64,000 bases of DNA from Owenia fusiformis (GCA_903813345.2 CAIIXF020000001.1:22382001-22446000); one strand, 5' to 3'. Positions 17,101-47,100 are shown, numbered from the stretch's first letter. Notes: a model not told the origin generated them from the sequence alone. Translations and numbers: made by a program.

Positions 17101-20100
17101 GTTTAATATTATCCAAATCTAAGATTGTTAAAATTGTGATGGATTTAATTTTTTACTTTGATTCAAAGAATTTTATTTTATATAAAATAATTAATTTTGT
17201 CTGATATATCCTACCCCCTCCCTTGTTTTTTAAGGAGAGGTGAATGGAAAACATCAGTGCTTGAAACTTACTATTAATTCCAGATGGGGCTAGAACCATT
17301 TAAAAATAACTTTTAATCATTTTTATATAATTTCAATAAACAGTATTAACCTCCCAATTTATTCAATTTCGTCACTCTCACACTCTGAATTTCTCAATTT
17401 ATGCTTGATTGATAAGTTAAAGGTGCAATATAACAAGTCCATACATAGCACTGGCCAATCTAGGTGGGGGGGGGGGCAGAAAAGAATTGTGGGCATTTCT
17501 TGGCCTCTTTTGGCCAAATTATAAAAAATTGGACTCAGTTTTTCAAAATATAGGCCCAAATTTGAGATTTAAGGGCCCAAAAAGTTATTCCTAATTTGAA
17601 ATTTGCTCCTCCCCCTTGTTAGCTTCCGGATCCGCCAGTGCATAGCATGGTTTTAAATACAAATTCTAACATGTATTGTGTGTTAAAATATCTACCTGTG
17701 ACAGGCTTCTGTGAAGAATATATGCAATGTAGTAACTCCCTAATCTGCTCCAAGTTTTTGTCAGTGAGAGCGAGGCGATATTTCTTCTTCTTGGGGGTAG
17801 TTCTGAAGTAGAAATTGTGGAATAGTTAAAGGCACTCAAATTTAAAGTTACTCAAGAATAAAGCCATTCACTCATAATAAATTAAAGAAAATGAAATACT
17901 TAAGGTTTTCAATACTAAATAAAGACATTCAATATTGAAGCCAGTCTGTCTTAAAGCCACTCAATCTTTAACCACCATTCAAAATTAGAATCATCTGTTT
18001 TTGAAGTCACTTAATATTAAAGCTTCGAGTTAACAAATCAATTTAATCATTAAGAAACTCAATGTTAAACGAATACATTTTAAATCAATTCAGTGTTTTA
18101 ATAAAATGTTAAAGGCACTTACTTTAAGAACATCTGTTTAAAGACAGGTGACCATTCTGCGAGATAAACTCTATGTACATGTAAATCTTGTCCCTCGACT
18201 ATTAACACAGCATCTGAAAACTCATCTGCTTTTGAGAAATCCTTCAATGGTGCGTCTATCTCTATTTCCATTGTCAGAGAGTGTTTAGACTCCATTAGGG
18301 AAGACTTAGAAGCCTTCAAGGCTTTGCTGATTCTGTTCATTGCCATCTCGTGACTTTCTTTCGCTTTTGTAAAATGTTTCGAAAGTGATTGTACCAAAGC
18401 AGAATATTTTTCACACATTTAAAGTCAGTATAGATGTTTGTTATCTTATGTGCTTGGTGGTCTCTAGTATTGTGTCCTTGTCTATCGATTGTTTTAGCAT
18501 TTCTTGTCCAGATGTGGATACTGAGATGTCTTCATTTAGTCTTTGTTCCAAAATGTTAATCTCATTCTCTGTAATTGAATTGCGTAGTTCTCAACAGCCA
18601 ATTAGCTTGTTGTAATCTAGTTCAAGTGATAGTTTTTATTACTCAGCGTTATATTTAGAGTGCTCTCTCAGCTGATTCGTGTGACAAATGTCTCCAATGG
18701 TCTCCAGTTATACACATTCCCAAATGGCTCAGATTAACTTTATAAATGTTTGTTTTCCATGGAAATAAGTGTCACCAAATATTGATGGTATGTTGTGGAA
18801 GTTGAGTGCAATCAGCTTTTAGATTCCTAGCTCTTCATGGCAATTTCTGAAAATGAAAAATGTGACAATATAAAGCAAGCGTCAGCATCTGGAAATATAT
18901 GCTGGGCTGTTAATGATACCATAATTATCTGATAAGTTCTTCTTACATAATATGATAATGAATTACATATGGTTTTCAGGGGTTTCATTAGCACCAAGCA
19001 ATAAACTATGGTTATTTTACCCAAATTACCAATTGTTTTGAATGATTTTGTAAATGTTTCCATGTTAAAATTATAATTTTCAATAATTATGCCTTTTCAT
19101 AAGTTTTTTTATGTTATCAAAATTTCTACCGAAACCCAGATAATTATCATTTTATAGTCAAACTTAGATCCTAAATTCTGGTATGGAAAATTCCAATTAC
19201 CAAGATTCTTTGAAATAACACAATGTCATTTCTTAAATGAAACAACGAGGACATTTTTCATGACAAAAATCAGTTTAACATGCTGCGCAATAAGTTCTTT
19301 GTTTCACCATTTATGACCCTAGCAACATTGTTTGATAGACTTAAACAAAGAAATCCATGCATGTTTCATCTTAATTAGTGGTCAGAGATAAGAAAACATG
19401 TCTAACCACTAGCCATCAATAAGAAATGAATATTAAATATGCCCCAAGATTTTATTCAGAATTACTTACTTTATGAAGATGTGCATTGTTTGTATCTTTA
19501 TCTATTTATCTATATCTATTTATTCCAGTGATCTCATCTAACTTAAAACACAGAACTCAAATGAAGTAATTGTATCCTGATCTGATAAGACCTTTGCTCC
19601 AATACGGCAACTTGTCTATTTGTATTCTATCTACACTTGAGTCAGACTTTTAAATCAATCGTAGTTAATTATAGCAATTTAAAGTTAGCGAACCTGCCTT
19701 GTACCATATGGGTTCACCCTCTAGCCAACATGTCACAGAATTACTCGCTAGAACTCATTGTAATCGATTTGACACCATAAAAGTAAATAAAATCATTTAA
19801 AAATATTCTGTGCTATCCTTTTAGAAATGAATAGGAATTAAAAATGACTCTTTTTAGAAATTTACTTAGAAAAATACAAAATTAATGCTATATGTACAGT
19901 TGTATGTGTTTCATGTATTTAGAAGCCTAGTAAAAGCAATCATATAACGTTAATCAATAAGTTGAAATTAATTTAAATGATGTTTTTTTCAATTTCAGAT
20001 TGCAATCAGAGAGTTGCAATTAGTTCATATATGGCCAATGTATGGTGAATATATAGGATTTAATTAATAATTACTTCATGATTATGTTAGAATCTCCTTT

Positions 20101-23100: not shown

Positions 23101-26100
23101 AATCTAAATGAGCATTATCCCTGCTTCGGACAAATTTGATTTTTTTAAATAATATAGATTTGAATGTCTTCTTTTAAATAGTCATAATTTAATTTGGGTA
23201 ATATTTCTAGATTTTTCACAAAAAAATATTAGCATAGTGCACTGATGAACTTCTTTCCCTAAATCGAGACTTGTATTTTATTGAATCGGTCTAATTGAGC
23301 GTTATCCCTGCTTGTTATTTTACATCTTGTAGATTTAAATGTCCTCTTTTGAATATTCATAGTTTAATTATTGGGTAATATTTCTATATTTTTCATGAAA
23401 AAAATTATTAGCCCAGGAGACTGTTCTCCAAACCGAGAATCGTCCTTTAAAGGAAACGACCTAATTAATTTATAATACAGGTACAGTTTATTATTTTTAG
23501 TGCTAATTTTAGTGTTAATCTTACCCTTTGCATTCATTCAACTTTGCTTCTTAAAATAAAGTTTCATAGATTATAACTTGACTCTGCGCTCAGGGGAAGT
23601 TAATCTTTAAAATAAACCTGATATTGAAGTAAAGGAGGTTATTCTGCAAAGCTCTCTACTTATGAGAAAACTCTTTAAATTCTTATGCAGACCTCTCGTA
23701 TAAAAACCTTTTCTATGAAAACCTCTCCTCTGAAAACATCTATGAAAACCTCTCCTATGAAAACCTCTCTTCTGAAAACCTCTTCTATGAAAACCTCTCT
23801 TGTACAGTATATCTCTTCTATGAAAACCTCTATTGTACAGTATCTCTTCTATAGAAATCGCTCCTATTAAAACATCTTCTTTCAAAATCTCCCTTCGGAA
23901 AATCTCCCTCGTGAAAACCTTTCTTATGAAGCCCCTTATAGTTATCATTAGCAGCTTACCTATACTGTTGTATATACCAAAAGGAAGACTGCATACATAC
24001 TGATGCTCTAAGCTGACTATCTGTACCTGCATACCAGATTGTGTATAAAGTATAAGGTAGCATGCATCAGTAATCAATGAATCCTTTGTTAGCCAGCTTC
24101 TCTCAATCATAGGGATTTAAGCCTCTGTTTCTACCAATATGCAAGATTAATTAGTAATGCTCATATTGGAATTAATATTTCTTATTAACCTTTATTAACA
24201 TCTGTCGTGCGAATCACAGTTGATAAATGTAGTAGATGTAAGATGCTGGACCCTATTAGAGGTTAATTTGGATATTGAACATGATTATTGATGAAAATGC
24301 AATATTTAGTTTGTCTCTAAAGATTTATTTATAAAACTCTGCAGCTAATTTTTTGCTTTAACAATAATTTATTTTTGACAATATTGGAAGGAATAATGAT
24401 CTTATAAATTTGATCTCAATATTGGGAAACATTTATGAAGCATTGTTTCTGTGAATAATAAATGTAAAATTTAATGTTAAGAGATCAATGAGGTGTCGCT
24501 GACCTTATGTGTTTGTATACTTTTTAATAGGGAGTTTAAGCTAGCATATAAAATCGAATGCCAACCTGTACGTAAGACAAATCGTCCATTCAAATGCATC
24601 GCTTAAATATTTTCTGTTCACAGTAAGGTTGTGAAAAACATCCCAAGCTTAAGCTCCCTAATAACTGAATGTAACAGATGCATTGATATTTTTTCTCAAC
24701 TTTCCAAGCATTCATAATTACTACACGTGCATCAATATTGTCAGCATTCTCAAAATCAATACCCTAACCAATATGCAATACCCTAACCAATATGCATTGA
24801 ATACTTGCATTACATCGACTATTTAATGGTATGCTAGTATTATACAGGCCCGTAGACCCCCTCCCCCACCTGGCCAAAAATTCTTTCAAAATCATGCAGT
24901 TTTTCACTATTCTGAGCATTTCTTAGGTGATTTTGGCCATTTTTTGGAACAAAATCGTCAACAGCCTTATTCTGCTCATTAGACTCATTAGAAAGTCAGT
25001 TAAATTACAGTATTGTAGAGAGTATAGAATGTTTGAAGCAATCTTCAAATAGCATATAGCTCTGATTCTGCCCCTAAGATGCAGAAATGTCCAAATTCAT
25101 AAGTATAGAGTCATTTAGTTACTATGCTGTGTTAACTACTGTATAGTAGTTGTTAAAGTGAACTAAATCATGATGATGGTGAACTACCAGCAATGTAATG
25201 TGACTATGAAGATTCATATACATCTTCTGAAGTACTTGTATCAGTCATCACTATTTGTTAAACATTCAGACCCACCTATAATGTACTTATGTTAAACGGT
25301 CAAGTTTAAAAGCATCTATAAATAGTAAGGTATTTGGCAATTTCATAGCTTAGGATCTTATGTTGATAAAAAGGTCATTCAAACAATTTTAATTTAACTT
25401 TGACATTTTTTCTAAAATAACCAATTTGAATTAGAAAAGTTAACTTTTATCTTAGTTATTTGCTTGAATTGAATTTGTGTTGATGAAGTTGATTATTTAC
25501 AGCATTCAAAACAAATAATAACAGCCATGAGATCCCACCCGACTTCAGACATTTTACAGCTAAAATACTAGAAAAGGAGAATTTCCATTCAGCAAACTCA
25601 CCTCTATCTGTACCAGAATATATATATTGTTCAGTATACTATTAGTCATCTGTAATTCTGTTCAAGCACACATGTTTTAAGGTGACAAATAATGTCAAGT
25701 TCACCTTTACTCGACAGTGAATAAACTATATGTTCGTCTCTGTATTTACTGTATTCCCTATTTGTAGGTGACTTGTATTGACACGACATGCATCTTAGTG
25801 TCCGTTTGTGTTTCATTCAGTTCTTATCATTATGCTTTAAAAGATGGCAGACTTGTTCTGAAACCAGAATTCAGATTTCTATACATTAACCTCTTGACTA
25901 CCTGGAGTGACGAGATTTCTCGTCACCTCAGAGATGACCTTGAAACTGAGTAACAAGAAAATTTGTCACAAAAATTTTCACATAGAAATGCTCTGAACAG
26001 TTTTCATCCAATTTACACAAAAATTGTTTTAAAATCTGTAGAAGTGATCTCTGCTGTCTAATTCTACTATATAGTGAAATGTCAAAAGGTGGCAAAATGA

Positions 26101-29100
26101 AAAATTCTCTGGTTTCAACCGATTTTAGAGCCTGGGATACATGAGGTTAAGTGAACTTCTTCTAAATTATGAACTGATGAAAAGGATGTTTAAGTTCAAA
26201 CAAAATGAAAAATTAAGATTGGAAAGAAAATTGTTTCAAACCATCTTCAGAGACCTCTAGTGTTAAATTATGGAAGATCATTTTTTCATATTTCATTATC
26301 AATTTTATCATATTGGAACAATCTATGATAGAGTTTTACTAACCTTCTCCTTTACATAATTTGATTTAATAAACTATTTGAAAATTAACGTGCTATTAAT
26401 ACTTTGAATCAGCATTTAACTTCTATTTACAAGATCTTTTCTCCTTGATGTAGTAGGCTCATATGTTGACGGTAAACCAAAATAGTTTGATTCAGTAACA
26501 TCAGCAGGTGCCCTATTCCAAATCTGGTATGAAATGGGTGCTGCTGCACAGCCTGTCCAAACTCTTTCCAGTATACATATTTGTAGTACTCTTGTAAGAT
26601 CCAGTGTAGTATGCCAGGAAGGATTCCACCTTAAAGTGATACTCATCATTTTTGAACCAGACTGTTGAGTTCCTTGATGCAAGTGATAAGACCTTCTTAT
26701 ACTGTAGTTCACCTGTGACCCTCCTGAAACATTGGACAACTGGATTAGTATTGCATTAGTGTGTGTATGTTCTTCTGTACAGGATGGGGTAAAAAGTTAC
26801 TTTGTATTTATTAAGTTATTCCAAGTCCTTATTTTTTTGCTCTGATTCAAAGATAGATTCTTTCTTAACCCTTATCCTCCCAAAGCGCGGTCAGCTACAA
26901 CCCTATATAGATTCTCCACTCGTGAACAGAGATTCATGTTCGCGAACCACACACCTGATCGTGGTTCACGAGCACGGATCTCTGTGTGCGAGTGGAGAAA
27001 TATTTTCAGGAGCGAGAAAATGGTGGTGTGCGATTAAAGATTTTATATGCGCGATGTGAGAATTGTGGTTTGAGTGCAAGGAACGTAGTTCGCGAGATAG
27101 ATGATAGTCAAGTGGTGACATATTGTTATGGTCTCCAACTTTTTTGTGGATGGTGTTTGGTGGCTGATGTTCAGCATTTGGTGGTTAGTGTTCTAAATGG
27201 CAGGTGGTGACATTTTGCATGTTGATGCCTGGTGGAATATTAATTCACCCTTTCTTTATAATTTTCACAGCTTAGCAAATAATCATAGACCTCTCCATTC
27301 TCTTGACTAGTATGGGAGCAAAGGTCATTCCGTGTCCTTTTTAGAGGCGAGCTAAGCGACATATATTTTCATGAACTATACTTGATACTTACCAAGAAAA
27401 ATGATTGTGGCAATTCTGAATCTGCGACGGCGTTGCTATGGTAACCAAGTAAATATGCCACGCCCACTTTTAGGGGCTCTTTTCGGTGTATGGCCCCTAT
27501 CTCTGTCATTTTTGTTCAGATTTAGATGAAATTCACACCAAATGGAAGCTAATGGATAATGCAATCAGGAAATATTAAGTTGGCAATTCTGGATCCGATA
27601 TGGCGTTGCTATGGTAACAAAGTAAATATGCCACGCCCACTTTTCGGAGCTATTTTCAGTGTTTGGACCATAACTTAGTCATTATTGCTCAGATTAAGAT
27701 GAAATTTGCACCAAATGAAAGGTAATAGATAGAGCAATCGGACAGTGTTTAATATATGCAAATATGGTGATTTGCATATCAATTATGACGTCATAACTGT
27801 TTGTTCTTGCATATTTTATTTTAATCATAATGTATAGATCTGGTAAATTATTGTCTTTAAAATGGTCCGTATAATGTTTTTAACTAGTCTTGTTTATTTC
27901 TTTTAGTTAAGTTTATTAGTTTATTCCATTCACACATGTATGATCATAATAGTTGAATAAATATAATGGAAGTGTCCAATTTACACTGTTGCTTTGGTGA
28001 CAGCATGCAACAAAACCATCTGCTGTAAACAAGAATTCTTTAGGAAATGTTACATTTTGACCAGTTGACTGATATGTATTCTTTTTAAAATTTGATGACA
28101 GAAAATAATCTAATAACCATAGTTATTAAATTTGGATTGTGTTATATTATGATGTCATAATGGCAATTTTTAATTAGGGGCGCAGCCAGCTTTCAGTCAG
28201 ATGGGGGCCTGCGATCGTGGCACAGGCAACAAAAATGTATTTGAATTTTACAAAAATTGATCCAACTTCCTTCAAAATTTAGCAAAAAGCTTCAAGTCGA
28301 AAACCTTCTTTTATCTAATGGTTCTATTTTTATCGGATATGAGGGGGTAGGTGAACCCAGCGCACCCCCCTCCCCCCCCCTCTAAGCACTGCCTATGTTA
28401 ATCCAACTTGATGTTGCTATGGTAACCAGGTGAATTAGACAATACATGAATAATGTAGATTGGCTGACTGACATACTTAGTACCTGTCATGGTATCATAG
28501 CTGATTTTTGTGATTATTTTCTTGAAATAAGGTAAAATTGCTCAAAATGATTCCTCTGTAACAGACATTGGTACTAACTATCCCATTAATCGCCTAAAAC
28601 ACTTGACAAACAATTTACAAAACACAAATTGTAATGCTAAATATCAGAAATTCCCGGGATTTAATTGACAATTTCGCAAAGATTAGTTTTCGCTTTTTTA
28701 TCAAGCACGAAACTAAATTGCAGGCGAAAAATACCAGGAGTACAGTACCTGTTATGGTATCATAGCTGCTTTTTGTGATTATCTCTTGAAATAAGGTAAA
28801 ATTGCTCAAAATGATTCCAAATTGGAACCTTGTCCTTTGACATTCACCATAAAATGAGGTCAAAGCTGAAAACTATGATTGATTCCATTTCTTTACTAGT
28901 ATGGAGTATGGAAGCCCCTGATTTAAGATATGCTTTTGGTTTTGAAATCTGACATCCAACCATTCGGTTCAAAATTGGTACAGTTATGTCTACATGACCT
29001 AAAAGATGAAATAGGCTAAAGTATTGACCTATACCATAAAATGATATTATTTTTTTATAGATTGACTAAGAACATATTTCGGAGTTCAAAACCATTAGCA

Positions 29101-32100
29101 GCTATTAATGCCACGATGGGTATGCCAGTCAGTCAATATACATAATCCATGCATTGTCTGACTCTTTAGCTTCAATTTGGTGAATATTTCATACACACAC
29201 TCAAGCTGTAATCATGACAAAGATAGAAGCGAAACTTTGAAAAAGCCCTGAACAATGGGGATGGCATATTCACCTAGTTACCATAGTAACATCATATTGG
29301 ATTAACATAGGCATTGCCAGGGGGTGCGATGGGTGCGCCCCATAAACAAAAAAAATAGAACCATTAAATAGAAGAAGAGCTTTAAAATCATTTTGACCTG
29401 AAGCTTCTAGCTCAGTTTTGAAGGAAGGTGCATCAATTTTTGTAAAATTCAAAACAAATCTTAAAAACATTTTTGGGTTGCTTATGCCACAATCGCAATC
29501 CCCCTCTCCTGACTGAACGCTGGCTGCACCCCTGATTTATAATTGCCATTATGACATCATAACATAACACAATCCAAATTAAATAATTTTCTATAGTTAT
29601 TAGATTATTTTCTGTCATCATATTTTAAAAAGAATACATGTGTCAGTCAGCTAGTCAACATGTAAAATTTCCCAAAGAATTCTTTTTACATCAGATAGTT
29701 TTGCTACGTGCTGTAACCATAGCAACAGCATAAATTGGACACTTTCATTACATTTTTGATTCATTCAGTTTTTATGACCATGCACGTATGAATGAAATAA
29801 AATTATAAACTTAACTTAAAGAAACAACCTAATTAATTAGTTAAAAACATTGCTGACTATTTTAAAGACAATAATTTCACAGATTAATACATCATGATTA
29901 AGATAAAATATGCAAGAACAAACATTTATGACGTCATGATCAATATGCAAATCATCCTATTTGCATAGTTTACTTACTGTCTGATTGCTCTATCTATTAC
30001 CTTTGATTTGGTGCGCATTTCATCTAAATCTGAGCAATAATGAAGAAGATAGGGGCCAAACACTGAAAAGAGCCCCTAAAAGTGGGTGGGGCATATCTAC
30101 TTTGTTACCATGGCAACGCCATAGTTGATTTAGAATTGTTAATATATCCTGATTGCATTATCTATAACTTTCAATTTGGTCTGAATTTCATCAAAATCTG
30201 AGCAATAATGGTGGAGATGGGGGCCAAACACTGAAAAGAGCCCCTAAAAACGGGCGTGGCATATTTACTTGGTTACCATAGCAACGGCATCGCAGATTCA
30301 GAATTGCCCATAATATTTCTTGATCATACTTTATATGTGTAAAGAAATAGAATGTAAATCAATCATTGTTTTCAGCTTTGACCTACTTTTATGGTGAATG
30401 TCAAAGGACAAGATACCAATTTGGAATCATCTTGAGCAATTTTACTTTATTTCAAGAAAATAATCACGAAACCAGCTATGGTAGTCATACCATAACAGGT
30501 ATATCAGTCTGTCAATCTACATTCCCCATGCATCGTCTGATTCATTAGTTTCCATTTGATGAAAATTTCATATACACCAGAGATATCATCATGACAACTG
30601 ATAGAATCAAGACTTTGGAAAAGACCTGAAAAGTGGGGATGGCATATTCACCTGAATACAACAGCTAACATAGGCATAGCCAGGTGGTGTGATTGGGGCA
30701 ACCCCCCCCCCCCATTTACCAATAAAAATAGAACCATTACAGCAGGAGAGCCAAGACGTCATTTCCATTGTTCTTTCGGCAGAAGAGCTTTAAAAATGCT
30801 TTTGACTTGAAGCTTTTAGCTCAATTTTGAAGGAATTTTTGTAAAATTCAAGTCAAATTAAACTTTTTTGAGTTGCTTATGCCGATATCGCACGCCCTCC
30901 CCCCTGATTGAAAGCTGGTTGCGCCCCTGATTAATAATTGCCATTATGGCATCATAATATAACACAATCCAAATTAGATAATTTTCTATCGTTATTAGGT
31001 TATTTTCTGCCAGCCATCAAATTTTAAAAGGAATACATGTCAGTCAAATAGTCAAAATGTAACATTTCCCAAAGAATTGTTTTCACAGCAGATAGTTTTG
31101 CAACATACTGTTACCATAGCAACAGCTTGAATTGGATATTTTCATTACATTTTTTCAATTTTTATGACCATACATGTATGAATGAAATAAACTAATAAAC
31201 TCATCGAAAAGAAATGAACTAATTAACTACTTAAAAGCATTACTGACCATTTTAAAGACAATAATTTCCCAGATTTATACATCATGATTAAAATAAAATA
31301 TGCAAGAACAAACGGTTATGACGTCATAATTAATATGCAAATCACCTTATTTGCATATTTTATAAACCGTTTGATTGCTCTTTCCATGACCTTTCATTTG
31401 GTACAAATGTCACCTAAATCTGAGCAATATTGACGAAGATAGGGACCAAACACTGAAAAGAGCCTCTAAAAGTGGGTGTGGGATATTTACTTTGTTACCA
31501 TAGCAACGCCATATCGGATTCAGAATTGCCAACTTAATATTTCCTGATTGCATTATTCATTATCTTCCATTTGGTGTGAATTTCATCTAAATCTGAGCAA
31601 TAATGACAGAGATACACAGAGATACACTGAAAAGAGCCCCTAAAAGTGGGCGTGGCATATTTACTTGGTTACCATAGCAACGCCGTCGCGGATTCAGAAT
31701 TGCCAACATCATTTTTCTTGATCAGTATCACTTCTAGTTCATGAAAACATATGTCGCTTAGCTCGCCTCTAAAAAGGACACGGAACCTCTTATTTGGACT
31801 TTTGCTCCCACACTATGACTATTAAAATAAAATGATATGTTTGTTGTTTACCATGACAATTTTAGGTCTCTTGATGTGGTTTATTTACAATATTGAACAG
31901 TCTATCTTTAGAGGATTGATAATTATATGCTCTACTAGTTTATGAAACACTACCTCCTGTGTGAGTCCTTGAATGTATATTCAGCAAAACCATCTGACAT
32001 GACAAATTGTGGTAGATAGTGACTCTGCTTAGTCATGGTGGAGAGGCCTGTCATAATCACAGGTGTAATAGCTGTAGGGAAGCATGTTTGTGACTTGGGA

Positions 32101-35100
32101 AGAATTGCTTTCACCATTACTCCAACCTTCATTGGATTCACTGAATGAAAGATTTGTAAACATTTACATTTATTTATTAGGTCATCGATTTGATTTCTTT
32201 GACTCAGGCATAATATCCCTCCAGATCTTTGTTCAAGACTTCCCAGATCTTTCCTTAATTCTCCAAAATCTTTGATCAAAGATCTCTTGACTTGCCACAT
32301 ATGCAAACGAAGATCTCTTAGCTTACCACATATGCAATCAAAGATCTCTCAACTCACCACATATACAATCAAAGATCTCTCAACTCACCATATTTACAAT
32401 CAAAGATCTCCATCTCAACACATATGCAATCAAAGATCTCTCCACTCAACACATATGTAATCAAAGATCTCTTAACTCACCATATATACAATTAAAGATC
32501 TCTCAACTCAACACATATGCAATCAAAGATCTCTCAACTCACCATATATACAATTAAAGATCTTTCAACTCAACACATATGCAATCAAAGATCTCTCAAT
32601 TCAACACATATGCAATCAAAGATCTCTCAACTCAACACATATGCAATCAAAGATATCCCAACTCAACACATATGCAATCAAAGATCTCTCAGCTCACCAC
32701 ATATGCAATCAAAGATCTCTCAACTCACCACATATGCAATCAAACATCTCTCAACTCACCATATATACAATCAAAGATCTCTCAATTCACCACATGTGCA
32801 ATCAAAGATCTCTCAGCTCAACACATATGTGCTCAAAGATCTCTCAACTCACCACATATACTATCAAAGATCTCTCAGCTCAATACATAGTACTATGCAA
32901 TCAAAGATCTCTCAACTTACCATATATACAATTAAAGATCTCTCAACTCAACACATATGCAATCAAAGATCTCTCAACACATATGCAATCAAAGATCTCT
33001 CAACTCACCAAATATGCAATCATAGATCTCTCAACTCACCATATACAGGGTGTCAAATAAGTCCCGTCCCCCCCCCTACAGCCAAAACAGGAAAAGATGG
33101 TACATAGTGTGATATACCATTGGAAAGATCGTCCAAAGTTAAGTTGATTGGCATATATCTGACACTTGTCAATCAATGTCACAAATTGCTACATTGTTGC
33201 AATTAAGGTGCCCGTATATATAAAAAGGCGGCAATTCAGCAGATTTTTGAAAACCAGGCATCAGTAATGCCATTCAAGAAAAGTCTGTCAAGATGGCAAC
33301 ATATGTATCTGATAGTGAGATACAACAATTTGTAGATAGAGTAAGATGTGTTGCATACAGAGAGGCAGTGGACAGTGGTGCAGACTTTATTTGTAAGAAA
33401 TGGATAGCGAAGAAGATTAAAAGATCTGACAAGTTTGTTCAAAGATGCTGGAAAAAGCCGTATGATGAACTTGTTACACAATCAAGATGTGGTGCTCCCG
33501 AAGTCCTTTCTCCTGCATCAAAGGAAGTTATATGGGATGGATCAGCTAAAAAGAGAAAGAGTTGTACTGAAGTGGCCAGAGATATCAAGATGAAGCGTGG
33601 CAAGGTGGTGTCAAGACAATTGGTGCACAATTATCGTGTTCGCGAAGGCCTTAAGGCATGGCACATTATTCCTAGACCATTGAAGAATGAATCCCAAAAA
33701 GCAGATCGCCTTTGGTTTATTAACTTTTTGAGAGATTGGGATGAGGATGACTTCCTCCATTTGGCTCCTTCTGATGAGTTTTTTTGTGTATACAATAAGA
33801 AAGCCAAACCATCAGAATGACCGTGTATGGGCTAAACGGCGTGATGATTGTAGTGATTTGCTAGTGCGAGAACAGTTGGCATGGCCCCAATGCATAGGGA
33901 TTTTCCTCTTATTTACGGCAAAGAAGATGATGTGGATTATTAAAGAGGATGGTCAGAAATGGACCGGGGATTACTTCCGTGATACAGTTTTAAGGGGGAG
34001 GGTAATACCCTTTCTAAGAAATCCTCAGAATGTGATTGAGCCATCCCAAGTGACTTTGTTACATGATAAGGCCCCTTGTATGAAGGCATTGGCTACACAA
34101 GATCTCCTCAAGCAGTCAAAAATTGACTTTTTTGGGAATGATGACTATCCTAGTAATAGTCCGGACTGTAATGCGTGCGAACATATGGGATCCATAGTTA
34201 AGGATAGAACAGAGGCACTTATGGATGAGGAACCCATAGAGAACAGAAATTCAAAGGATGCTTTATTAAAAAACTTGAAGAAAGTACTAAAAAGTCTTGA
34301 AAATGCACATGAACTTTTTGACGTTTTGCTTAAGTCATATCCGTCTCGTTTTGACGCCATAAAAGCTGCTGGAGGGGGACATACCAACTATTAAAGAAAT
34401 CATCAGAATAAAGGTAAATGTCATCTAAACTACTTGAGAGTTGGTGAGTTAATGTAACTTTGGATGATCTTTCCAATGGTATATCACACTATGTACCATC
34501 TTTTCCTGTTTTGGCTGTAGGGGGGGGGACGGGACTTATTTGACACCCTGTATACAATCAAAGATCTCTCAACTCACTACATATGCAATCAAAGATCTCT
34601 CAACTCACCACATATGCAATCAAAGATCTCTCAACTCACCATATATACAATCAAAGATCTCTCAACTCACTACATATGCAATCAAAGATCTCTCAACTCA
34701 CCACATGTGCGATCAAACTTACTCACCACATATGCAATCAAGGATCTCTCAACTCACCACTTATGCAATTAAAGATGTCTCAACTCAACACATATGCAAT
34801 GGAAGATCTCTCAACTCACCACATATTCAATCAAAGATCTCTCAACTCACCACATATACAATCAAAGATCTCTCAACTCACCACATATATGATCATCTTC
34901 ATCTGAGCCATCTTGGCAGTCCACAATGCCATCGCAACCCTACAATCAAGAAAAGCATATCTATCATATGACATATATACTTCTGTCACTACTACCAGTA
35001 TAGTAAATATTTTTCATGTTCTTAATGAGTTACATGGGTTAATGATTTCAAACGTAGTATTTCATACCAACATTGAATGTATGCATTCTCCTGAGTCCCT

Positions 35101-38100
35101 GCAGCGAAACTGTCATTTCCTTGCACAATGGTCAGCTGAAGTCAGGAAGTGTAGATGCAAATGATCACTTCTCAGGTGTTAACTTCAAAAGTTATTCATA
35201 CTGAGAGGTAAATTTTGTCACTGTATTCCAATAGGAGTTTTCTCTAGAATCAGTATTCTTCTCAAATTTGAAATTTTACTATCAAAATATTTATCTTGTA
35301 AGAGCTTTGAGTGAGATTATAGCAATGTATTTTAAGTTGTCCTTCAATATAACAAGGAATTCCAAAGCAGGAAGTACCCCAAATCCTTGCATATCCGTTC
35401 ATATAATTTTCGCTTGGTGGCCAGTCAGTTTTTACTATTTCAGCCCTGGTAATAAACAGTGGTAATAATACTAATAAAGTCATTAAGTCATTTCTGTGTG
35501 CAAAATAATGAAATATTGGACCTTCGGTCTTCAGCCCTTGGTCCAATATTTCACTATATTGCCCTTTAAAATGACGTTATTTTGCTATTGGTTATGATGC
35601 TTATTCTCTTGTTTTAAGAACTTACACATTTTATAAGATTCTTCTGCTAGGCCCTCCGAAGTTCTCTTTGAATTCTGCAGCCGCTCGAGTTTAAACATAT
35701 TGTCTTTATACAATCTTTGAAACCTTTTTTCAACACTAAAAACAAGATTATCAAGATTGATCTATCTACTGTTTTTTTTTATTTCATTTAACAAACATCT
35801 GTCTTAGTTTCACTTATTGGTGGCTATTTTTAGCTCACATGGTGAGCTTTTGCAATCACTCACTTGTCCGTCTGTCTGTCCGTCCGTCCGTCTGTACGTC
35901 CGTCCGTCTGTACGTCCGTCCGTCTGTCCGTCAACAATAGTGGCACGTTTTAAAACCTCTGTTGATAGGATTCCTGTTTTAAGTTATTTCTGATCAACAT
36001 CAATACAGAAAACCCCCCTATGACTCCTGGTTCAAAAGCTCGCCTATTTTCAAAATGGCCGTCACTTTTGTCTCGCGAAATTCACTTTTAGCCCATTTCC
36101 TAGCTAACCTCTGTCGATAGGATTCCTGTTTTAAGTTATTTCTGTTCAACATCAATACAGAAAACCTCCCTATGACTCCTGGTTCAAAAGCTCGCCTATT
36201 TTCAAAATGGCCGTCACTTTTGTCTCGCGAAATTCACTTTTGGCCCATTTCCTAGCTTTACAAATAATTTCAGGTGTCCTACATTGTAAAAATCCATGTC
36301 AATGTAAAGATTAGATATATGAAATAATTTTGTTACAAAAAATCAGCGAAAAATTGTATCCATTTTTTTATTTTCAGCCATTTTAGTTAACATTGATTTG
36401 TCTATCTGACTCGCGAAATCCACTTTCTGTCAATAACAGTGGCAGTGTGGCACGTTTTAAAACCTCTGTCGATAGGATTCCTGTTTTAAGTTATTTCTGT
36501 TCAACATGAATTCAGAAAACTCCCCTATGACTCCTGGTTCAAAAGCTCGCCTATTTTCAAAATGGCCGCCATTTTTGTCTCGCGAAATTCACTTTTGACC
36601 CATTTCCTAGCTTTACAAATAATTTCAAGTGTCCTACATTGTAGAAATCCATTGCAAAGTAAAGAGTAGATGTATGAAATAATTTTGTTACGAAAAATCA
36701 GCGAAAAATTATATCCATTTATTTATTTTCAGCCATTTTAGTTAACATTGATTTGTCCATCTGTCTCGCAAAATTCACTTTTGGACCATTTACCTTAAAA
36801 CCTCTGTCGATAGGATTCCCATTTTAAGTTATTTTTGTTCAACATCAATACAAAAAACTCTCCTATGACTCTTGGTTTAAAAGCTCGGCTATTTTCAAAA
36901 TGGCCGTCACTTTTGTCTCGCGAAATTCACTTTTGACCCATTTCCTAGCTTTACAAATAATTTCAGGTGTCCTACATTGTAAAAATCCATGTCAATGTAA
37001 AGGGTAGATATATGAAATAATTTTGTTACAAAAAATCAGCGAAAAATTGTATCCATTTTTTTTCTTTTAAGCCATTTTAGTTAACATTGATTTGTCTATC
37101 GGACTCGCGAAATCCACTTTCTGTGGCACGTTTTAAAACCTCTGTCGATAGGATTGCTGTTTTAAGTTATTTCTGTTCAACATCAATTCAGAAAACTCCC
37201 CTATGACTCCTGGTTCAAAAGCGAAAAATTGTATCCATTTTTTTTCTTTTAAGCCATTTTAGTTAACATTGATTTGTCTATCGGACTCGCGAAATCCACT
37301 TTCTGTGGCACGTTTTAAAACCTCTGTCGATAGGATTGCTGTTTTAAGTTATTTCTGTTCAACATCAATTCAGAAAACTCCCCTATGACTCCTGGTTCAA
37401 AAGCTCGTCTATTTTTACCCTGCGTGCAGAGTCTAGTTAAACTACACTCTGCCTAGTAGAGACCATATTACAGTTTAATAGCCCCACCCCCTCGACGGGT
37501 ACCGGTGACAGTTTGGGTAAAACACTTTTGACCTACGCGCTGCCCTTCCACCAATCAGCGAGCTTCAAGAAACATACGCCAAATGCGTTCTAATTAAATA
37601 TTCGCATGGCATTGGTCAATTCCGGGCTCAATGATGACGTCAGAAGGAATGACCATATAAAGAATGTCGGTCAAATTTGGCCAACGAAAACTGATTGGCG
37701 CGGTGAGTTCACAGGTTTATTTTAGTTTGAAAGAGTGAAGACGAAGCTCTCTTTTAAGAAGTGAAGTCAAACGAATGCAAAGGGTAGCCTATTTTCAATA
37801 TGGCCGCCATTTTTGTCTCGCGAAATTCACTTTTGACCCATTTCCTAGCTTTACAAATAATTTCAAGTGTCCTACATTGTAAAAATCCATGTCAATGTAA
37901 AGAGTAGATGTATGAAATAATTTTGTTACGAAAAATCAGCGAAAAATTATATCCATTTATTTATTTTCAGCCATTTTAGTTAAGATTTGATTTGTCCATC
38001 TGTCTCGCAAAATCCACTTTTGGACCATTTACCTTAAACCCTCTGTCGATAGGATTCCCATTTTAAGTTAATTTTGTTCAACATCAATACAAAAAACTCT

Positions 38101-41100
38101 CCTATGACCCTTGGTTCAAAAGCTCGCCTATTTTCAAAATGGTTGCCATTCTTGTTCCGCGAAATTCACTTTTTGCCCATTTCCTAGCTTTACATTTTAG
38201 CTTTAATTTCAGCTGTCCTGCATTGTAAAAAGCCATGTCACTGTTAAAGGTAGTTCTATGAAGTAATTTTGTTACAAAAAATCAGCAAAATATTATATCC
38301 GTTTTTTTATTTTCAGCCATTTTAGTTAACATTGATTTGTCCATCTGTCTCGCGAAATCCTCTTTTAGACCATTTGCTCAAAACCTCTGTCGATAGGATT
38401 CCAGTTTCAAGTTATTTTTGTTCAACATCAATACAAAAAACTCCCTTATGACTCCTGGTTCAAAAGCTTGCCTGATTTCAAAATGGTCGCCATTTTTGTC
38501 TCGCGAAATTCAATTTTGGCCCATTTCCTAGCTTTACAAATAATTTCAGGTGTCTTGCATTGCAAAAAGCCATGTCACTGTAAAGAGTAGTTGAATGAAA
38601 TAATTTTGTTGCAAATTATTGGCAAAAAATTATATCCGTTTTTTTTTCAGCCATTTTAATTGACTGAGAGACAGATGGCTTGAAATAATTTTGTAACAAA
38701 AAATCAGCAAAAAATTATATCCGTTTTTTTCTGTCACCATGTGAGCCCAGTACCCATGGTACTAATTTTTAAAATAGCAGCCATGGCCATTTCATGGGAT
38801 TTGCTACGCCTTGATGTTGTTTTTATCACAATGTTGTTTTTATCTAATTTTCACATTTACCTGTCAATTCTGCTCTCTTGGTAGTCTAGTTTATGATCTA
38901 TGATCTTAGGAGAAACCTTGAGTTGAGATCCACTAAGTTCACAGTCACATGTTGCCTCAAGTCTTCGTATTATGTAGATGGCCACAATCAGGACCAACAA
39001 GTTCCTTGCTATCATTCCCAGACAGTTTAACAACATCTTGTGCGAATATATAGAGTAAACTAAAGAATTATTCTAAACAAAACCTTTTTCTAATGTGAAT
39101 ATCTTGCAAATACCTGAAGTCTGTGATAAAACTCATGAACATTTGTATTATTCAATGATGTTTGGGAGGGATATAGAGAAGCTATCTATTTGTCCGTCAG
39201 TTAGTGTATCAAGGTCATAACTCAAATACTGTTTGTCAGATTAAGCTCAAGTTAACGAAGCTGATCCCTAGTGTGCATAAGTCCTCTGCTGAAGAAAAAA
39301 TTTATTGTATGGCTGCATTGAAAATGACCACCATTTTTGAATAAAACCGCTTATAATAAGGTTAACAATCTCTGTTTAAGAGGGGATTTTCAATATGGCC
39401 TCCAAATTCAAATAATCAACATCTTTTTTCAAAATCTCAGTCATTTTTCCTTCAACTTCAATGTTGTTGGATAGATTGATTATAAATATATATGATAAGA
39501 ATAAGTGAATTGATAATATATAATTATATTATGGAGAAACTATGAGTACCGGGTTTTAGGAGGATTAATAGCCGAGGGCCAATAGCCCCAATGCTATCAA
39601 TTTGATTTCGTTTGTATTGACTATGAGGTAAGTGTTTTGAGAAGTGAGTGGGTGTAATTAGTTCAGCTTCAGTGCACTGCATGTAAGAGGTCAGGAACAG
39701 TTTACAGTGATCTCCACAGGATTTTTCTAAAGTGGGTGCAAAATTCTCATTTTCACAATTCAGACCAAAATTGGTCAAAATATGCCCACTTTTCATAATT
39801 TTTTTATTTTCAAGTGGGTGCAAATGAATTATCAGGTGGGTGCAACCTTATTTTTAAAATCTTACTTTAATGCTTGGGAGATCACTGGTTTAAAATTTGA
39901 TTTATTTTGTGTTTACTATTCAACTATTGAGTGAATGAAAGGGTTTTAGTAAGATGCATGTGACAGTACAGGTGTAAACATGAGACAAAAATTGTCAATC
40001 TTTTTTTTTTATACCAAACTGGGTTTGGATAGCTATGCCAAGTGTCCATTCTTTGAAAATAATAGAAAGAGAATACACTCTTTGTTACAGCTGTATATTC
40101 TTTAAATTATTATTATTGGGATATAGTCATCATACTGGTCGTGGTCGTGATCGTGTTCGTGATCGTGATCGTCCCGCTTTTTGTCATCGCCGTTTAAGGA
40201 AAACTGCTCATCAGATTTTCTCCAAATTCGCAGAGATGATAGAGCATATGAAGTACTAGAGCTGATTAACTTTTGGGTTGCCATCTTGTTGGTGTTACTT
40301 ACTGTTTAGTATAAAAGGCATGATCCCGGAATAAAACTCAAGGGTACACAGGATTGAGGTCAGTGTGTCAACACCTTTTCTTGTTTATCTAGCAATAATA
40401 TAGTATAGATGGTCACACATTTATAAAAGGGAGATTTTTATTTTATTTTACTTTTTTTATGGGTGAAGTTTAGGATCTTCTTTTTGTGTGTAATAGAAAA
40501 ATATTGACATCTAAATTTGATAACCATCAGGTATTAGCATATAGTATAGCTTCTGAAATGATCTACAAATGAAGCAAAGCAGTTTGGATGAATACAAGGA
40601 TATATTGGCTGTTTTACATGCATCCTTTGGATAACTCACTCACTCAATGCTGACAGAATCATTGTAAACAGATTATTTTATCTCCATGACGATTTCAATA
40701 AACTAGAATTTAGAAACTCAACCTTATCTCATAAAAATGGACTAATCCATTTGACTCGCCTGGAGCCACCATATTGTTTTTGTACAGGAAACTTATCGTA
40801 ACCCTTTAATCATAGAAAACATTAGAGTCAACATACAATTAACTTGCTGTTATAATTCATCCTCTCATCAAATGAAAATATCAGTATAAGAATCATCAAG
40901 GACAGAACTTTCCTAAAATGAATAAGAACTAATTAATGAGCTGGAATGTTTATAAGATTCATTTCTACAGATAAAATTCTAATATTCAGGTTCTTTAGTA
41001 TTTGCTTCATATTCTTTTTTTCGTTTTTGAACCATTGTGTGAATAACTCCGCTGCACATGCTTTGTGTCTTTTCTGTCATAATTCGGGCACATTTTGTAC

Positions 41101-44100
41101 ATTGCCAGTTTACTTTATCATCCTCAGCTTCGTGATCTTTACACCGCGCAGAATCATCCCTGGATGAACAAACGTCATCAATTGTCAACATCGTTGATTC
41201 TAACAGTGTGCATCGCTCCTCCAAAATCATGATTCTAGTTTCCATCTTTAATTGAGGATAAAGTTTGTCCGTTTTTAAATCACTTAAGGTATTTTTACGA
41301 AGTTGATTGATGCAAGCTTTTCGCAGATTTTTTAGTTTGTATTGTTGAGCCAATAGGAGTCCCTCGACTGTTAAGGTAGTCGCCAAAAGGAAATCTTCGC
41401 AGCGTTGTGTAATTTTCTTTATTTGATATTCATCAGCTAATGGAAGGAGGAATCGAACATTTGACTCTGGAAGTAAAAATTCAGCACTAGTACTACTTAC
41501 TTCTGATTGGTTATTTCTAATACAACTGGAGTTACTATTCAGTTTGACAGAAAAACTAAAAAATTGTAAGCTATGGACATTTTTTGATTTCTGAATAAAA
41601 AGAAATGTCACTTAATCTATATACAGATGGATCATCATATATTCAGTAAGGATAAGGGTAATTATTAAATATCATGAACTAAGTTGCATTGAACCCCTGT
41701 ACCCCCCCCCCCACCCCCAGCATACTGATGAACATAAACTATGCACTAGGTAGTACATACAGTTATAAGGTTTTGGTATCCCTTCTTCCCTTAGTATACT
41801 CCAATACATGATTTAAATATTTACCTGAGATTATGTTTTGTGTTGGATATATGCAATGCAGCAACTCAAGGACTTCAACTCGTTTCTTGCCATTTAGACT
41901 AATCTCCTTTGACTTCTGGTCATTCACAAACATTTTCTTGAATACGGGCGACCATTGGGCTAAGTAGGATTTGTGGACCTGCATTTAACAACCAACATTT
42001 AGATCCTACATATTAATCTCATATCAAAAATGTGATATTTACACATTATCTTTATGCTTAGATTTCCTCACTGATTTTTTAAAGATTGATAAATATAAAC
42101 AAACATTTTATTTGTGTTAGCTCACCCCTAAGAATCAGTGTAAACAAAGATAGCTACTTTTCTTTTGTATGTATAGTTGACGAATGTTTAAGTACTCCAT
42201 ATTCATTTTTAACACTAAAGTTTAAAGGTACACAACACAAACTGCACGAATCGTTAAAATACATCTAAAGAAAATGATGTTTTTTATAATTAAGTTGCCA
42301 AGGGTTGTTGAAAGATAAGAAAAGAGCAAATCAGTCTTAAATCTTTTTAAAAATTAATCAATGGGGAAGAGTGGACCACTGATAAAGTTCACTTACAAAT
42401 TGTTAAACTTTTACTCGACATTTAAGGACAGTTGTACACTGTATTTTTAAAACTCACCTTTTGAAATACTAATAAGACATACAATAAGATTCTAGATATA
42501 GACACTCCTCTTTCTATTTCTATTCAAAATATTTGTGTTTTTATTGAAAAATGTTACATAATTGATTTCCTGGTTTGTGTGCCATACTTTAAAAAAACTA
42601 TGTTCAACTTACATGTAATTTTTGATCTTCGACAATCAGTGTAATGTCGCTGAATTCATCCTTCTTAGTGAAATCAATGACATCATTCATGGTGTCGTCC
42701 ATTGACTTGTCCTCCTCTCTAGTATGCTCTGTACCCATGTGATGTAGCTCCTGGCCTGCCATACAATCAATACAGTTGGTCCTCTTAGGCTTGTGTACCT
42801 TTGCCAACTTACCACAAGGTTTAACTGTCAATATACTGTAGATTTGCTTGATTCCTATGTAAGTTAACACACCTGTGAGCAGTAGATAACAGGTGCGTAC
42901 AGGTGAGTTTAACTGTATAATGACAGGTAGTAACTTCACCTTAGAGAGTAAGTCAAAACCCATTGACATATTATCTTGATAAATGATCAGTGAAAATCTT
43001 CTCATTTATAGTAATATTATGATACATTATCAAAACAATTCAAGTCAAAGTAATTTATCCTTTTCAAGCCATCTTATTAACCTTTTGTTTTGATAAATTT
43101 TTCTTAAAAAAGAGGTAACCCAAGAGATCTTGACTAGTGTCTAGTTATGAAGGTTCACCTACTTATATCTCAAGATAAGTATTTTGATGGTGTCAATCTT
43201 CGAATATCATCTTTTCGTGTCAGTGGGTTAATCTCAAGTTAGCTTTTAGTAAAGTGACAGTTATGGGATTAACATTATTTATAACTCAACCACACTTGCA
43301 TTTGGCTATTCACCATGCCTATGAAACTACAGCAGGAAACTATATAATATACAGTGAAACCTGTTCATTGAAACACTTCAGAGTCCCAAGACCAACCTAA
43401 TGTTGATTAACCTCTTTAAGTGAAACACCTCCCAAGCTGAACACCTTTTAGAGGTACCAAAGGTGTTCCACTTAGACAGGTTTTACTGTATTTACAAAAA
43501 AATAGAAATACTAAAAATAACGTATAGTTTAGTTATCTCATGAGGTTAAAACACCTTTGAAACATTTAAATGCAGTATAACATTTGTAGACTCAAATATA
43601 GATATTAACATGGACTTCAAGTGGCCAGTCATTGAAATGTCAAAACTAGCATGTTTTAAGCCCGGTTTTAAGAAACTACTACATTGATGCAAATATGTTA
43701 AGGGATTGTGTCCAATTATCAATAGTTGTGGAAGAACAGTTTTATTTTCATTAGGGGAAGAGGTAGTAACTGATGATTACATCAGCAGACTAAAATGTTG
43801 ATTTTATTAATATTCAAGTGAAAAACCTATTTCCAGCATTAAATTTATTTTTAGGATAAGAGGGGGAGGAAAACTAGAACAAAATAGTTGTAATAGCAAA
43901 ATGTTGATAATAAGACACCAAGTCCATTCCTTTAAATTTATAATTTTTTACATTTCATAAGCAAAGATTAATACTTATTGATCATCCCTCGTACATGAAA
44001 TAGGAACTTGTGTGTTATTGTAAATATACTAAAGATAAGTATGATGCTTGATGAATGAGAATCCATTGATATTTAAAAGGAATTTAAGTTTTTATTAAGC

Positions 44101-47100
44101 TGAATGGCTTTTCCTCTCCTTCTCCTTCAGTTGACCATGGAATATAGTTGATGTAGCTGTTGAGCTGTGGTATCACATGGTATTATCCATCCTCCTAAGC
44201 AGGTGTCCAGAATCCGTACCTCCTTCTTCCCCCTGCTATAACCAATTTGGACGCGCCCGATTTAACTGAATCACGTGATCTAATTATGCGCAATAACGTA
44301 TACATGATTTCTGTAGCAGTGTTGCGACAGCCAATCAGATTGTGAGCTCTTAATCGGGGAAATGGTAACTGCTTATCGCAGGGGGTAAAAAGAAAGAATA
44401 CTGGATTTTGAAGCCCTGTGATCGGAGGATGGGACTTAATGAGGTTTCAGGTACATCACAGGATCATACACATAGAAAGAATATCTTCCCATGTCTAAAA
44501 CATGTCATAACATAACCCCATGTTATATATTGCAGAGTGAGTTCAGACCCATCATATTGGAATGCAAAACCTCATTATTCCAAGAATAAATGGTAATAGA
44601 TGAATTATCTCATGTTGTTAAGCATAGCAATTTTCATGTGTTTCAGATTGTTTCTAAAAAGCCAAATGGTCTTTTCCTAACTAGACTACCATTTGAGTAC
44701 AAGTCAATCCACGATGAAGTGTTTCCACCTGATGCTATAAAGTTATTGGACCAATGGGCAGATATAGTCAGAGTAGAGAGGTATGTTAAACAATATATTG
44801 ATACTGGAACTAATGTATCAGTGATCTCCCCAGCATTAAAGCAAGTGGGTGCAGCACCCACCTGAGATTTGAAAAACAGGCTTGCACCAACCTGAAAATC
44901 CATTTGTACCCACTTGAAATGAGAAAAATTATGAAAAATTGGCATATTTTGACTTATTTAAGTCTGTATTGTGAATATGAGAATTTTGCACTCACTTGAG
45001 GAAATATCCTGTGGAGAACACTGTATTATCTAGAAATTGAAGATTGCCAGCAATGTCACAGAGAGGCCATGTGAGAATGAATCCTACTTTGATAGTCTGC
45101 TCTTAGAATAAAAAAAAATTAGATTACTAAGATCTGGACATGATTGTAAGGAGTTTGGGTTGTCTGTTAGTTTGACCAATTTCTGCTCACTTTATGTTTA
45201 CAGAGGTCAGTTCGCATTGATAGCTTTCATATAACGGGTCATATATAGAACTTCACTGGAGAAATGTTTTTCAATATGTGTGCTCAATTCAAGATAACTG
45301 CCATTTCTCATATAAGATTTATCTTTGATACCACCCCTTGACATATTTAGTTGACGTTTTATACACTGATACCTTAAGGACATATGACTACTGCTCTTGT
45401 AGAAATTTTTTTTTCAAGACATGATTTTTTGATATTTAACAGTTATCAGACTTGGTCTTAATTTTACAGGTCAATTATATGCCTTATGGTCATAGAAGTA
45501 TGTATTTTGATTTATGACAATTTATCTGATTTTTTCAGTGGAGTTGGAGATATGAAAATTTTGTTTCCTGTTGCTGGTAGTTCCCCTGTAGTAGCCCCAA
45601 CCCCCGCCACCCAGCCAGCCCCCCAGAGAGCACCTCAAGATCCAGCCCCCTCAGCCAGAACTGTTGTGATGCCAGCAAAGGAGACTAATGGACATGCTTA
45701 CATAAATATTACTGAAGACGTGAGGGTGCCTCCCCCTCATCTTCCTTTAATCAGGTCTGTATCTTGTATCTTAGTTTGCATTTGAATTTCATTCAAGTTG
45801 AATATACATGTATACATGTACATACATGAATTTATCGTATGATCTGTAAAATGAAGCCTTCTGATTGGTCAGTTCTTGTGCTGTACCAATCTGTATTGGT
45901 ACTGAGATTGTCCCCATTGATCATCTCCGTCGCAATACAGAAAATATTGGTACGGAGGGGACATTCTCAGTAGTAATACAGAGGATCACACAATAAAAAC
46001 GTTATAGAATGATTTGAAGTGCAATACAGGATATATTCTGCTCGAGAAATTCTGTATTGGAACGAGACGAAGTCGAGTGCCAATACAGAATATCAAGATC
46101 GATAACTTATCAATCAATAACTTATAATACATGTGCACCCGGAGGTGTGGATATTACAATATTGTCCAGTTTTCTTATTTTTAGATACATGTACTGACTT
46201 TGAACTATTTTATTTATTCTTGGTATGACAATTTCTCAATACCTTTCTTAGTTTTATAGTCAATTTTGATCAGTTCTGATACAAAATGTACATCCTTCAA
46301 AAAGATAAGAGTGCTCCCTCTAAAATAAATTTGATTTCATGAAAACATTTTTGCAAGTTACAAAGTATTCTAAATTAAAAGTACCTGTGTTTGTATAATA
46401 TAATTACAAGTTATTATTCCATAATAGCATAGGGAATAGAAGTGATATTTGAAAAATCCTGTATCAGATTCCATATTCATATTCCATCCCTCCATTAAAG
46501 AACCTCTATGTTTAATGTTTATCCAACCTAATATCAACATCCTATGATTCTTTGTTATTTTCAGATCTAACTTTAGGGTGCTGATTAGCAACACTGAGTC
46601 TATAGATGACTTCTATGTTCAGATCAGCGCTAATTCTCAACTTCTCACAGAGTTTTCTAAGCAATTAAATGATATTTATGAAGTAAGCATATTTGACTAG
46701 TTGATATTCAATAAAAACATAATGATAAATACAGAATAGTAGGCAGTAAATGATATCACTCAAAATGGTACATTGCACAGATTTTATATGAGATTTTATT
46801 GTACAGATAACACAATGATAGTGAGATAAAATACAATATTTTTAATTGATTTTCATTTAAATTTTAACTTGGGCTATTTCCAATTTTTTTTTCTGCCTTT
46901 TAAAGTATTGACCTTAAATATCGCCCTAATTTTAAGTAGCTTTTTGAACATGTTTAAACCATTATGGATTTAAATCTGATGTATTTTCTGCGTCTATTAC
47001 TTACTTTAATTCTATTCTTGCCTATTCAGGCCAGTGTTCCCCCTAAAGTGCTATCAAAACCAGAGGTTGGGACTTACTGTGCAGTATGCTTTGAATACGA

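Follow-up and report, generated by a model that had tools for sequence, protein, structure and literature searches.

A six-exon gene on the minus strand

The window analysed in this study is a stretch of 64,000 nucleotides (nt) from Owenia fusiformis (GCA_903813345.2 CAIIXF020000001.1:22382001-22446000), and it contains a genuine, unannotated six-exon animal gene on the minus strand, extending from 39036 to 26513, whose predicted product is laid out like the linker chains of the giant annelid haemoglobins and whose frame carries a single in-frame TGA. All five introns are bounded by GT and AG, with phases 2, 1, 0, 1 and 2, and the joined reading frame of 810 nt comprises 269 codons followed by TAG with no frameshifts, in agreement with a preliminary description of this DNA, in which six small exons with matching phases had been recognised. 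The same description had placed the gene at 26513-39015; the lower end was retained, and the upper end was moved, as 39015 is the second of two in-frame ATG codons in exon 1 and the first lies at 39036. The elements of the gene are as follows:

38861..39036, minus strand: exon 1, with the ATG, a hydrophobic signal-like stretch, the CDC motif and the beginning of the helical region; donor AG/gtaaat, phase 2
35626..35735, minus strand: exon 2, a heptad-patterned helical region; acceptor ttgtttttag/T; donor T/gtaagt, phase 1
35068..35135, minus strand: exon 3, the first half of an LDLa module, Cys1-Cys3; acceptor cttcctgacttcag/C; donor TTG/gtatga, phase 0
34882..34939, minus strand: exon 4, the second half of the LDLa module, Cys4-Cys6, with DGSDE; donor G/gtgagt, phase 1
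31954..32140, minus strand: exon 5, the first half of the C-terminal domain (NP..G, QTC); acceptor tttcattcag/T; donor AG/gtagtg, phase 2
26513..26723, minus strand: exon 6, the second half of the C-terminal domain (KND..FK, YY.GS, D.LC); stop TAG at 26515-26513
26365..26370, minus strand: candidate poly(A) signal ATTAAA, 142 nt past the stop, assigned by motif only

As had been noted before, only exon 5 is apparent as an open reading frame (ORF): a frame of 132 amino acids (aa) at 31950-32348 is the sole long ORF of the gene. Stop codons occur in the window at a frequency of 0.065 per codon, which gives a probability of about 2.5e-7 that no more than one stop would occur among 269 random codons, and the LDLa consensus emerges only after exons 3 and 4 are joined. 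Because of this low probability, the consensus restored across the exon 3/4 splice and the in-order homology to a second protein, P0001, described below, we consider the six-exon model to be more than a product of chance.

The encoded protein and its relative P0001

The encoded protein begins with a signal-like N-terminus bearing a CxC motif (CDC), which is followed, in order, by a heptad-patterned stretch of about 33 residues, a single LDLa module and, as the C-terminal domain, 132 residues with two cysteines. This order is the one first proposed, namely signal peptide, CxC, coiled coil, one LDLa module and a domain of ~130 aa; the signal peptide was assigned by eye from the hydrophobic N-terminus encoded by exon 1, and the coiled coil was judged solely from the heptad register in exon 2, where 7 of the 10 a and d positions are hydrophobic over ~33 residues. 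At the DNA level, all six LDLa cysteines are present over exons 3 and 4 (spacing 7/5/6/3/4/4), and the module carries the DxSDE calcium-cage cluster. Exon 4 alone matched the Pfam family Ldl_recept_a with an E value of 5.5e-4, which bears out the LDLa assignment, and its score of 20.5 bits falls below the cut-off of 24.1 because this exon is half a module only. The module is flanked by introns 2 and 4, both of phase 1, an arrangement that is generic for LDLa cassettes and hence carries low weight as a linker trait. The C-terminal domain has only two cysteines (QTC and DRLC), as the preliminary description stated.

A homologue of this protein was found in the annelid Owenia fusiformis, namely the NCBI entry CAH1784067.1 (140 aa, "unnamed protein product, partial"), hereafter P0001. 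When exon 5 was compared with 1.84e9 representative proteins by HMMER, exactly one protein was returned at E<=0.001, and this was P0001 (E 2.8e-4, 35% identity); exon 6 aligned with residues 79-133 of P0001 in a pairwise BLASTP comparison with 38% identity (E 2e-12). Searched against the window by tblastn, P0001 gave in-order matches at 34912-34883, 32141-31953 (E 5.6e-12) and 26725-26546 (E 1e-8), the ends of its alignments coincided with the predicted splice sites, and no second copy was found in the window. Residues 1-10 of P0001, which form the end of an LDLa module, align to the end of exon 4, and both cysteines of the C-terminal domain are kept between the two proteins (alignment A1).

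The product of the window gene and P0001 are thus alike in that the end of an LDLa module is followed by an equivalent C-terminal domain, with 35-38% identity over exons 5 and 6, and in that both proteins terminate at the same point. P0001 differs in being an N-terminally truncated gene model, so that the signal, CxC, coiled coil and early LDLa parts lie outside the comparison, and in being unnamed, with no Pfam family or described function. Since P0001 matches exons 4, 5 and 6 in order, the locus belongs to a conserved family; these three exons are independently supported by the comparison with P0001, and exons 1 and 2 are predicted from splice logic.

No further relatives were found among longer proteins in word-indexed searches with exon 5, exon 6 or alignment A1, none of the proteins so searched containing either exon. 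The ESM Atlas, queried with exon 6 and P0001, gave no usable match (noise at 0.88-0.92 from unrelated clusters), and metagenome scans with the same two queries confirmed 0 relatives. A literature search for a description of the family returned canonical linkers only, and sequences of this family might be contained in the supplementary linker alignments of PMC6400237. Judged from these searches, the locus and P0001 represent a small and apparently undescribed gene family, in which P0001 is the sole detectable relative.

An in-frame stop codon, RNA and sequence variation

The continuous coding frame implied by the preliminary description could not be upheld, as an in-frame TGA at 35115-35113 on the minus strand (codon 103) had been overlooked. 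The codon is located inside the LDLa module, between Cys1 and the conserved Phe, and it sits in the phase-consistent exon 3, that is, in the model with the best splice sites.

Four sequencing runs (X1, X4, X9 and X11) were aligned to the repeat-free stretch 34889-35865, which spans exons 2-4. X9 and X11 are raw RNA sequencing runs of unspecified tissue, of which ~1.9 and ~1.7 billion letters were read, corresponding to 6% and 12% of the runs. The kind of X1-X8 is unspecified, and X1 and X4 were treated as DNA-like because their short contigs are colinear with the genome across the boundary between exon 4 and intron 3. RNA depth was zero on exons 2, 3 and 4 in both raw RNA runs, where reads fell on dispersed repeats only, and none of the listed runs is recorded as containing RNA of exon 6 and its 3' untranslated region (UTR). 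Junction-spanning reads or orthologues had been named beforehand as support for the gene: no junction reads over exons 2-4 were seen in the two RNA runs, and the orthologue side is represented by one distant homologue, P0001. Separately, a (GTCC)n tract at 35866-35932 drew very many reads in all four runs aligned.

From the nonsense codon inside the LDLa module and the silence in the RNA examined, we conclude with moderate confidence that the copy in the assembly is a null allele or a very young pseudogene. Several observations weigh against inactivation. The scope of the RNA is narrow (6% and 12% of two runs, exons 2-4 only), and the TGA site was covered by none of the four runs aligned there. 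The 269 codons contain only one disabling change and none of the ten splice sites is damaged, for which reasons the stop may be an assembly error or a rare allele. Moreover, the ~10 differences listed for X1 and X4 all lie in intron 3, against 0 in those parts of exons 3 and 4 that were covered, a pattern that hints at constraint on the exonic sequence. In favour of inactivation, a single contig of X4 (depth 7.7) carries T for A on the plus strand at 35066, which changes the intron-3 donor from GT to GA and may represent either a splice-disabling allele or an error. The evidence on activity is therefore mixed, with hints of past constraint on one side, and the stop codon, a possible splice variant and no transcripts in the samples read on the other.

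Two ways of bypassing the TGA in frame were recognised. Skipping exons 3 and 4, which together form the phase 1-1 LDLa cassette, keeps the frame and leaves 227 codons. The other is a different choice of splice sites for intron 2, the sole stop-free join found:

35098..35628, minus strand: alternative intron 2, with its donor after 35628 and its acceptor before 35098; hypothetical, without read support

This join would give 256 codons, and its sites are weak, since the donor AAAAT/GTGTAA mismatches the consensus at +4 to +6 and the acceptor cgctgcag/G is weaker as well. It would also delete Cys1 and Cys2 of the LDLa module, leaving nine cysteines, an odd number. Other in-phase acceptors downstream of the TGA were checked by hand and create TGA or TAA at the junction.

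These escapes bear on the alternative that the gene is intact and functional, the TGA being a codon bypassed by splicing, an allele that segregates or an error of sequencing or assembly, and expression being restricted to a tissue or stage outside those sampled. The canonical splice sites, the absence of frameshifts, the identity of 35-38% and the two cysteines that exons 5 and 6 retain with so distant a homologue, and the lack of variants in the covered exon parts all favour this alternative. However, the splice sites are strongest in the very model that contains the stop, the alternative donor is off consensus and leaves an odd number of cysteines, RNA depth is zero over exons 2-4 in both raw RNA runs, and a donor-destroying variant is present on one X4 contig; we therefore regard an intact gene as possible but doubtful.

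Comparison with haemoglobin linker chains

Linker chains form the non-globin scaffold of the 3.6-MDa haemoglobins of annelids, and their origin and taxonomic range are disputed, a transcriptome survey placing them in ten phyla (PMC6400237) and a genome survey in annelid genomes only (PMC7771090). According to PMC5383013, disulfides join the linker chains, and every chain combines an LDLR-like domain and an eight-stranded beta-barrel with a long N-terminal helix that takes part in a triple coiled coil. For the LDL-A domain of linkers, Belato et al. (2019, PMC6400237) quote the signature C-x(5-7)-C-x(5-6)-C-x(6)-C-D-x(3)-D-C-x(4)-D-E-x(2-4)-C.

The window gene resembles the solved linker chains L1-L3 (2gtl_M, 4u8u_M, 22jw_M/O, 4v93_C0) in several respects. 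The chains are of similar size, with N-terminal cysteines and helical heptads, and the single LDLa module is about as far from the N-terminus as in linkers and precedes one terminal domain of ~125-130 residues. The residues after the last LDLa cysteine number 132 in the window gene, 130 in P0001 and ~120-130 in the solved linkers (217-240 aa; estimated from match ends). With 269 codons, i.e. more than 200 aa, and a hydrophobic N-terminus as judged by eye, the protein also falls within the length and secretion range of linkers. The cysteine spacing of the LDLa module matches the published signature given above, at the DNA level only, since one of its x positions is the in-frame TGA and the module is untranslatable as it stands. 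In contrast, the C-terminal domain has no detectable sequence or profile similarity to that of linkers, the heptad region, at ~33 residues, falls short of theirs, the LDLa module is divided by an additional intron of phase 0, and the stop codon is present.

The sequence searches gave no link to the linker family. In Pfam-A at E<=10, neither exon 5 nor exon 6 matched any family, so the proposed HMMER check of these exons against the linker C-terminal profile turned out negative, and P0001 gave only DUF6831 at chance level (E 0.21); the test of the linker family itself (Eryth_link_C) was run without a linker sequence as a positive control for that model. MAM, CUB and C1q, weighed as possible identities of the C-terminal domain, were all absent from the Pfam results. 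Among PDB chains at E<=10, no linker was returned by phmmer with exon 5, exon 6 or P0001, or by hmmsearch with the profile of alignment A1. The library does contain linkers, as the LDLa half-module retrieved five linker chains from it (22jw_M, 4u8u_M, 2gtl_M, 4v93_C0 and 22jw_O), which served as a positive control, and for the same half-module every linker scored below the enteropeptidase and LDLR modules. On the structural side, AlphaFold2 models of P0001 with and without the window exons reached a predicted local distance difference test score (pLDDT) of 32.3 and 32.7 with only two effective sequences and were unusable, so that the lack of a Foldseek match in the PDB at E<=0.001 is meaningless given the model quality. 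No globin was found in the 20 window ORFs scanned with Pfam, a set that does not amount to a systematic scan of the window for globin exons.

The LDLa modules of LDLR/VLDLR, enteropeptidase and CD320 share with the window gene the six-cysteine DxSDE calcium cage and the phase 1-1 exon cassette, and exon 4 finds its best PDB matches among the modules of enteropeptidase and LDLR. The window gene differs from these proteins in having a single module, which is split by an extra intron and the stop and joined to a coiled coil and an unclassified terminal domain.

Taken with these searches, the term "linker-like" used for the product holds for layout, segment sizes and cysteine signature, and homology with linkers is unsupported by the sequence tests run. 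Both sequence-based tests that define membership of the linker family failed. In linker genes the LDLa module is reportedly flanked by phase-1 introns (Chabasse et al. 2006), a feature generic for LDLa modules.

The strongest form of the linker proposal is that the gene encodes a true, very divergent linker of hexagonal-bilayer haemoglobin, whose C-terminal domain is an eight-stranded barrel and which, itself or through intact orthologues, binds extracellular globins. Its domain order and segment lengths are those of solved linkers (PMC5383013), the LDL-A cysteine signature fits, the phase-1 introns would agree with it, and its sole relative comes from an annelid for which one linker and three extracellular globins are reported in PMC6400237. 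The linker calls of Belato et al. (2019) demanded a Pfam linker domain at E<1e-10, and P0001, having no such domain, is a gene other than the linker reported for Owenia. No Pfam linker family was found on P0001, which holds the whole C-terminal domain, or on exon 5 or exon 6; no PDB linker was returned at E<=10 from a library that contains them; the LDLa half resembles the modules of enteropeptidase or LDLR at least as much as those of linkers; and the sole protein matched by exon 5 at E<=0.001 among 1.84e9 matches no Pfam or PDB linker. We consequently judge a true linker to be unlikely.

A related proposal, which we put forward as speculative and rather improbable, is that the locus and its Owenia relative P0001 form an undescribed sister lineage of linkers, in which the layout of coiled coil, LDLa module and barrel would have been kept, the sequence would have diverged beyond detection, and the product would act as an extracellular scaffold independent of globin.

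Returning to the null allele or young pseudogene that we favour, the protein encoded before inactivation can be pictured as follows. It would be secreted, and the N-terminal CxC together with the short heptad helix may hold the chains in a parallel oligomer stapled by disulfides, by analogy a trimer. A single LDLa module with its calcium cage would be presented by each chain, along with a C-terminal domain of ~130 residues closed by the conserved cysteine pair, a domain predicted, with low confidence, to be beta-rich. The assembly could then serve as a multivalent extracellular adaptor or scaffold, in which the acidic DxSDE cluster would bind a partner through its basic side chains, with additional contacts made by the terminal domains; the mode would be that of haemoglobin linkers, and the partner need not be a globin.

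A separate family with the three-part layout of linkers, found in a basal annelid as well as in the genome analysed here, could be a remote paralogue that reveals an ancestral, globin-independent role, or exon shuffling could have brought a coiled coil, an LDLa cassette and a terminal domain together independently. If the sister-lineage proposal were true, it would show linkers before their recruitment to haemoglobin and would bear on whether linkers predate annelids. What is added here is an unannotated gene and an unclassified domain of ~130 aa, of modest immediate value because the copy in the assembly is probably non-functional.

Two further explanations are weak. The absence of RNA support and of an annotated protein would suit the idea that there is no gene and that open frames and splice-like motifs met by chance, which is very improbable and already contradicted by the open frame (about 2.5e-7), the LDLa consensus restored only across the exon 3/4 splice and the independent in-order homology over exons 4, 5 and 6. 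That the TGA encodes selenocysteine is hardly credible: only the identity of the stop as TGA speaks for it, the codon occupies a variable, non-cysteine site of the LDLa module, and no match to a selenocysteine insertion sequence (SECIS)-like element was found at E<=1 within 25000-27000, a range that takes in the region of the 3' UTR.

Introns, neighbouring genes and other features

The introns of the gene are rich in repeats. Intron 1 is nearly filled by tandem arrays at 35954-38658, with periods of 152-344 bp and 85-100% matching (Tandem Repeats Finder). Intron 4 contains a Tc1/mariner-like element of 1513 bp at 33042-34554, with terminal inverted repeats of 100 nt and 99% complementarity. 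Two overlapping frames, at 33251-33820 and 33732-34394, share its transposase coding sequence, which matches the Pfam family HTH_Tnp_Tc3_2 (E 1.3e-4), and the element looks like a recent insertion. It lies inside an array of a 31-bp minisatellite, present at 32275-33045 (~25 copies) and 34551-34888 (~11 copies). The reverse complement of the minisatellite unit closely resembles the end of exon 4 with its GTGAGT donor, so that the donor is repeated along intron 4, and the unit length is not divisible by 3. Tandem duplications occur in intron 5 at 27408-27739, 29981-30306 and 31391-31722, each with ~1.9 copies and periods of 168-174 bp; judged from ORF translations, all three appear to derive from a single dispersed element, copied in both orientations. 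A hairpin at 26914-26997, also in intron 5, gave a weak match to the mir-3149 model (35.7 bits against a gathering threshold of 100, E 1.4e-4) and may be a simple inverted repeat.

The gene lies between two minus-strand BTB/POZ (and BACK-like) genes of similar build, at 15572-18418 and 40979-43005, in which the Pfam BTB domain was matched with E values of 7.8e-10 (15.5-18.4 kb) and 1.4e-4 (41-43 kb). The preliminary description had the gene nested antisense in an intron of a germline gene, and no such nesting is visible: the sole Tudor exon confirmed by Pfam lies on the plus strand at 61931-62221 (E 2.3e-6), and no plus-strand coding exon was recognised upstream of 26.5 kb among ORFs of at least 65 aa inspected by eye, one plus-strand ORF being scanned with Pfam, a check that untranslated or very short exons would escape. 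An ORF at 46958-47230 is Tudor-like by eye and has no Pfam match.

Elsewhere in the window, an open frame of 329 aa at 11229-12215 on the minus strand matches no Pfam family at E<=0.01 and is followed by an overlapping frame of 151 aa at 10856-11311; the overlap suggests an intron or a frameshift.

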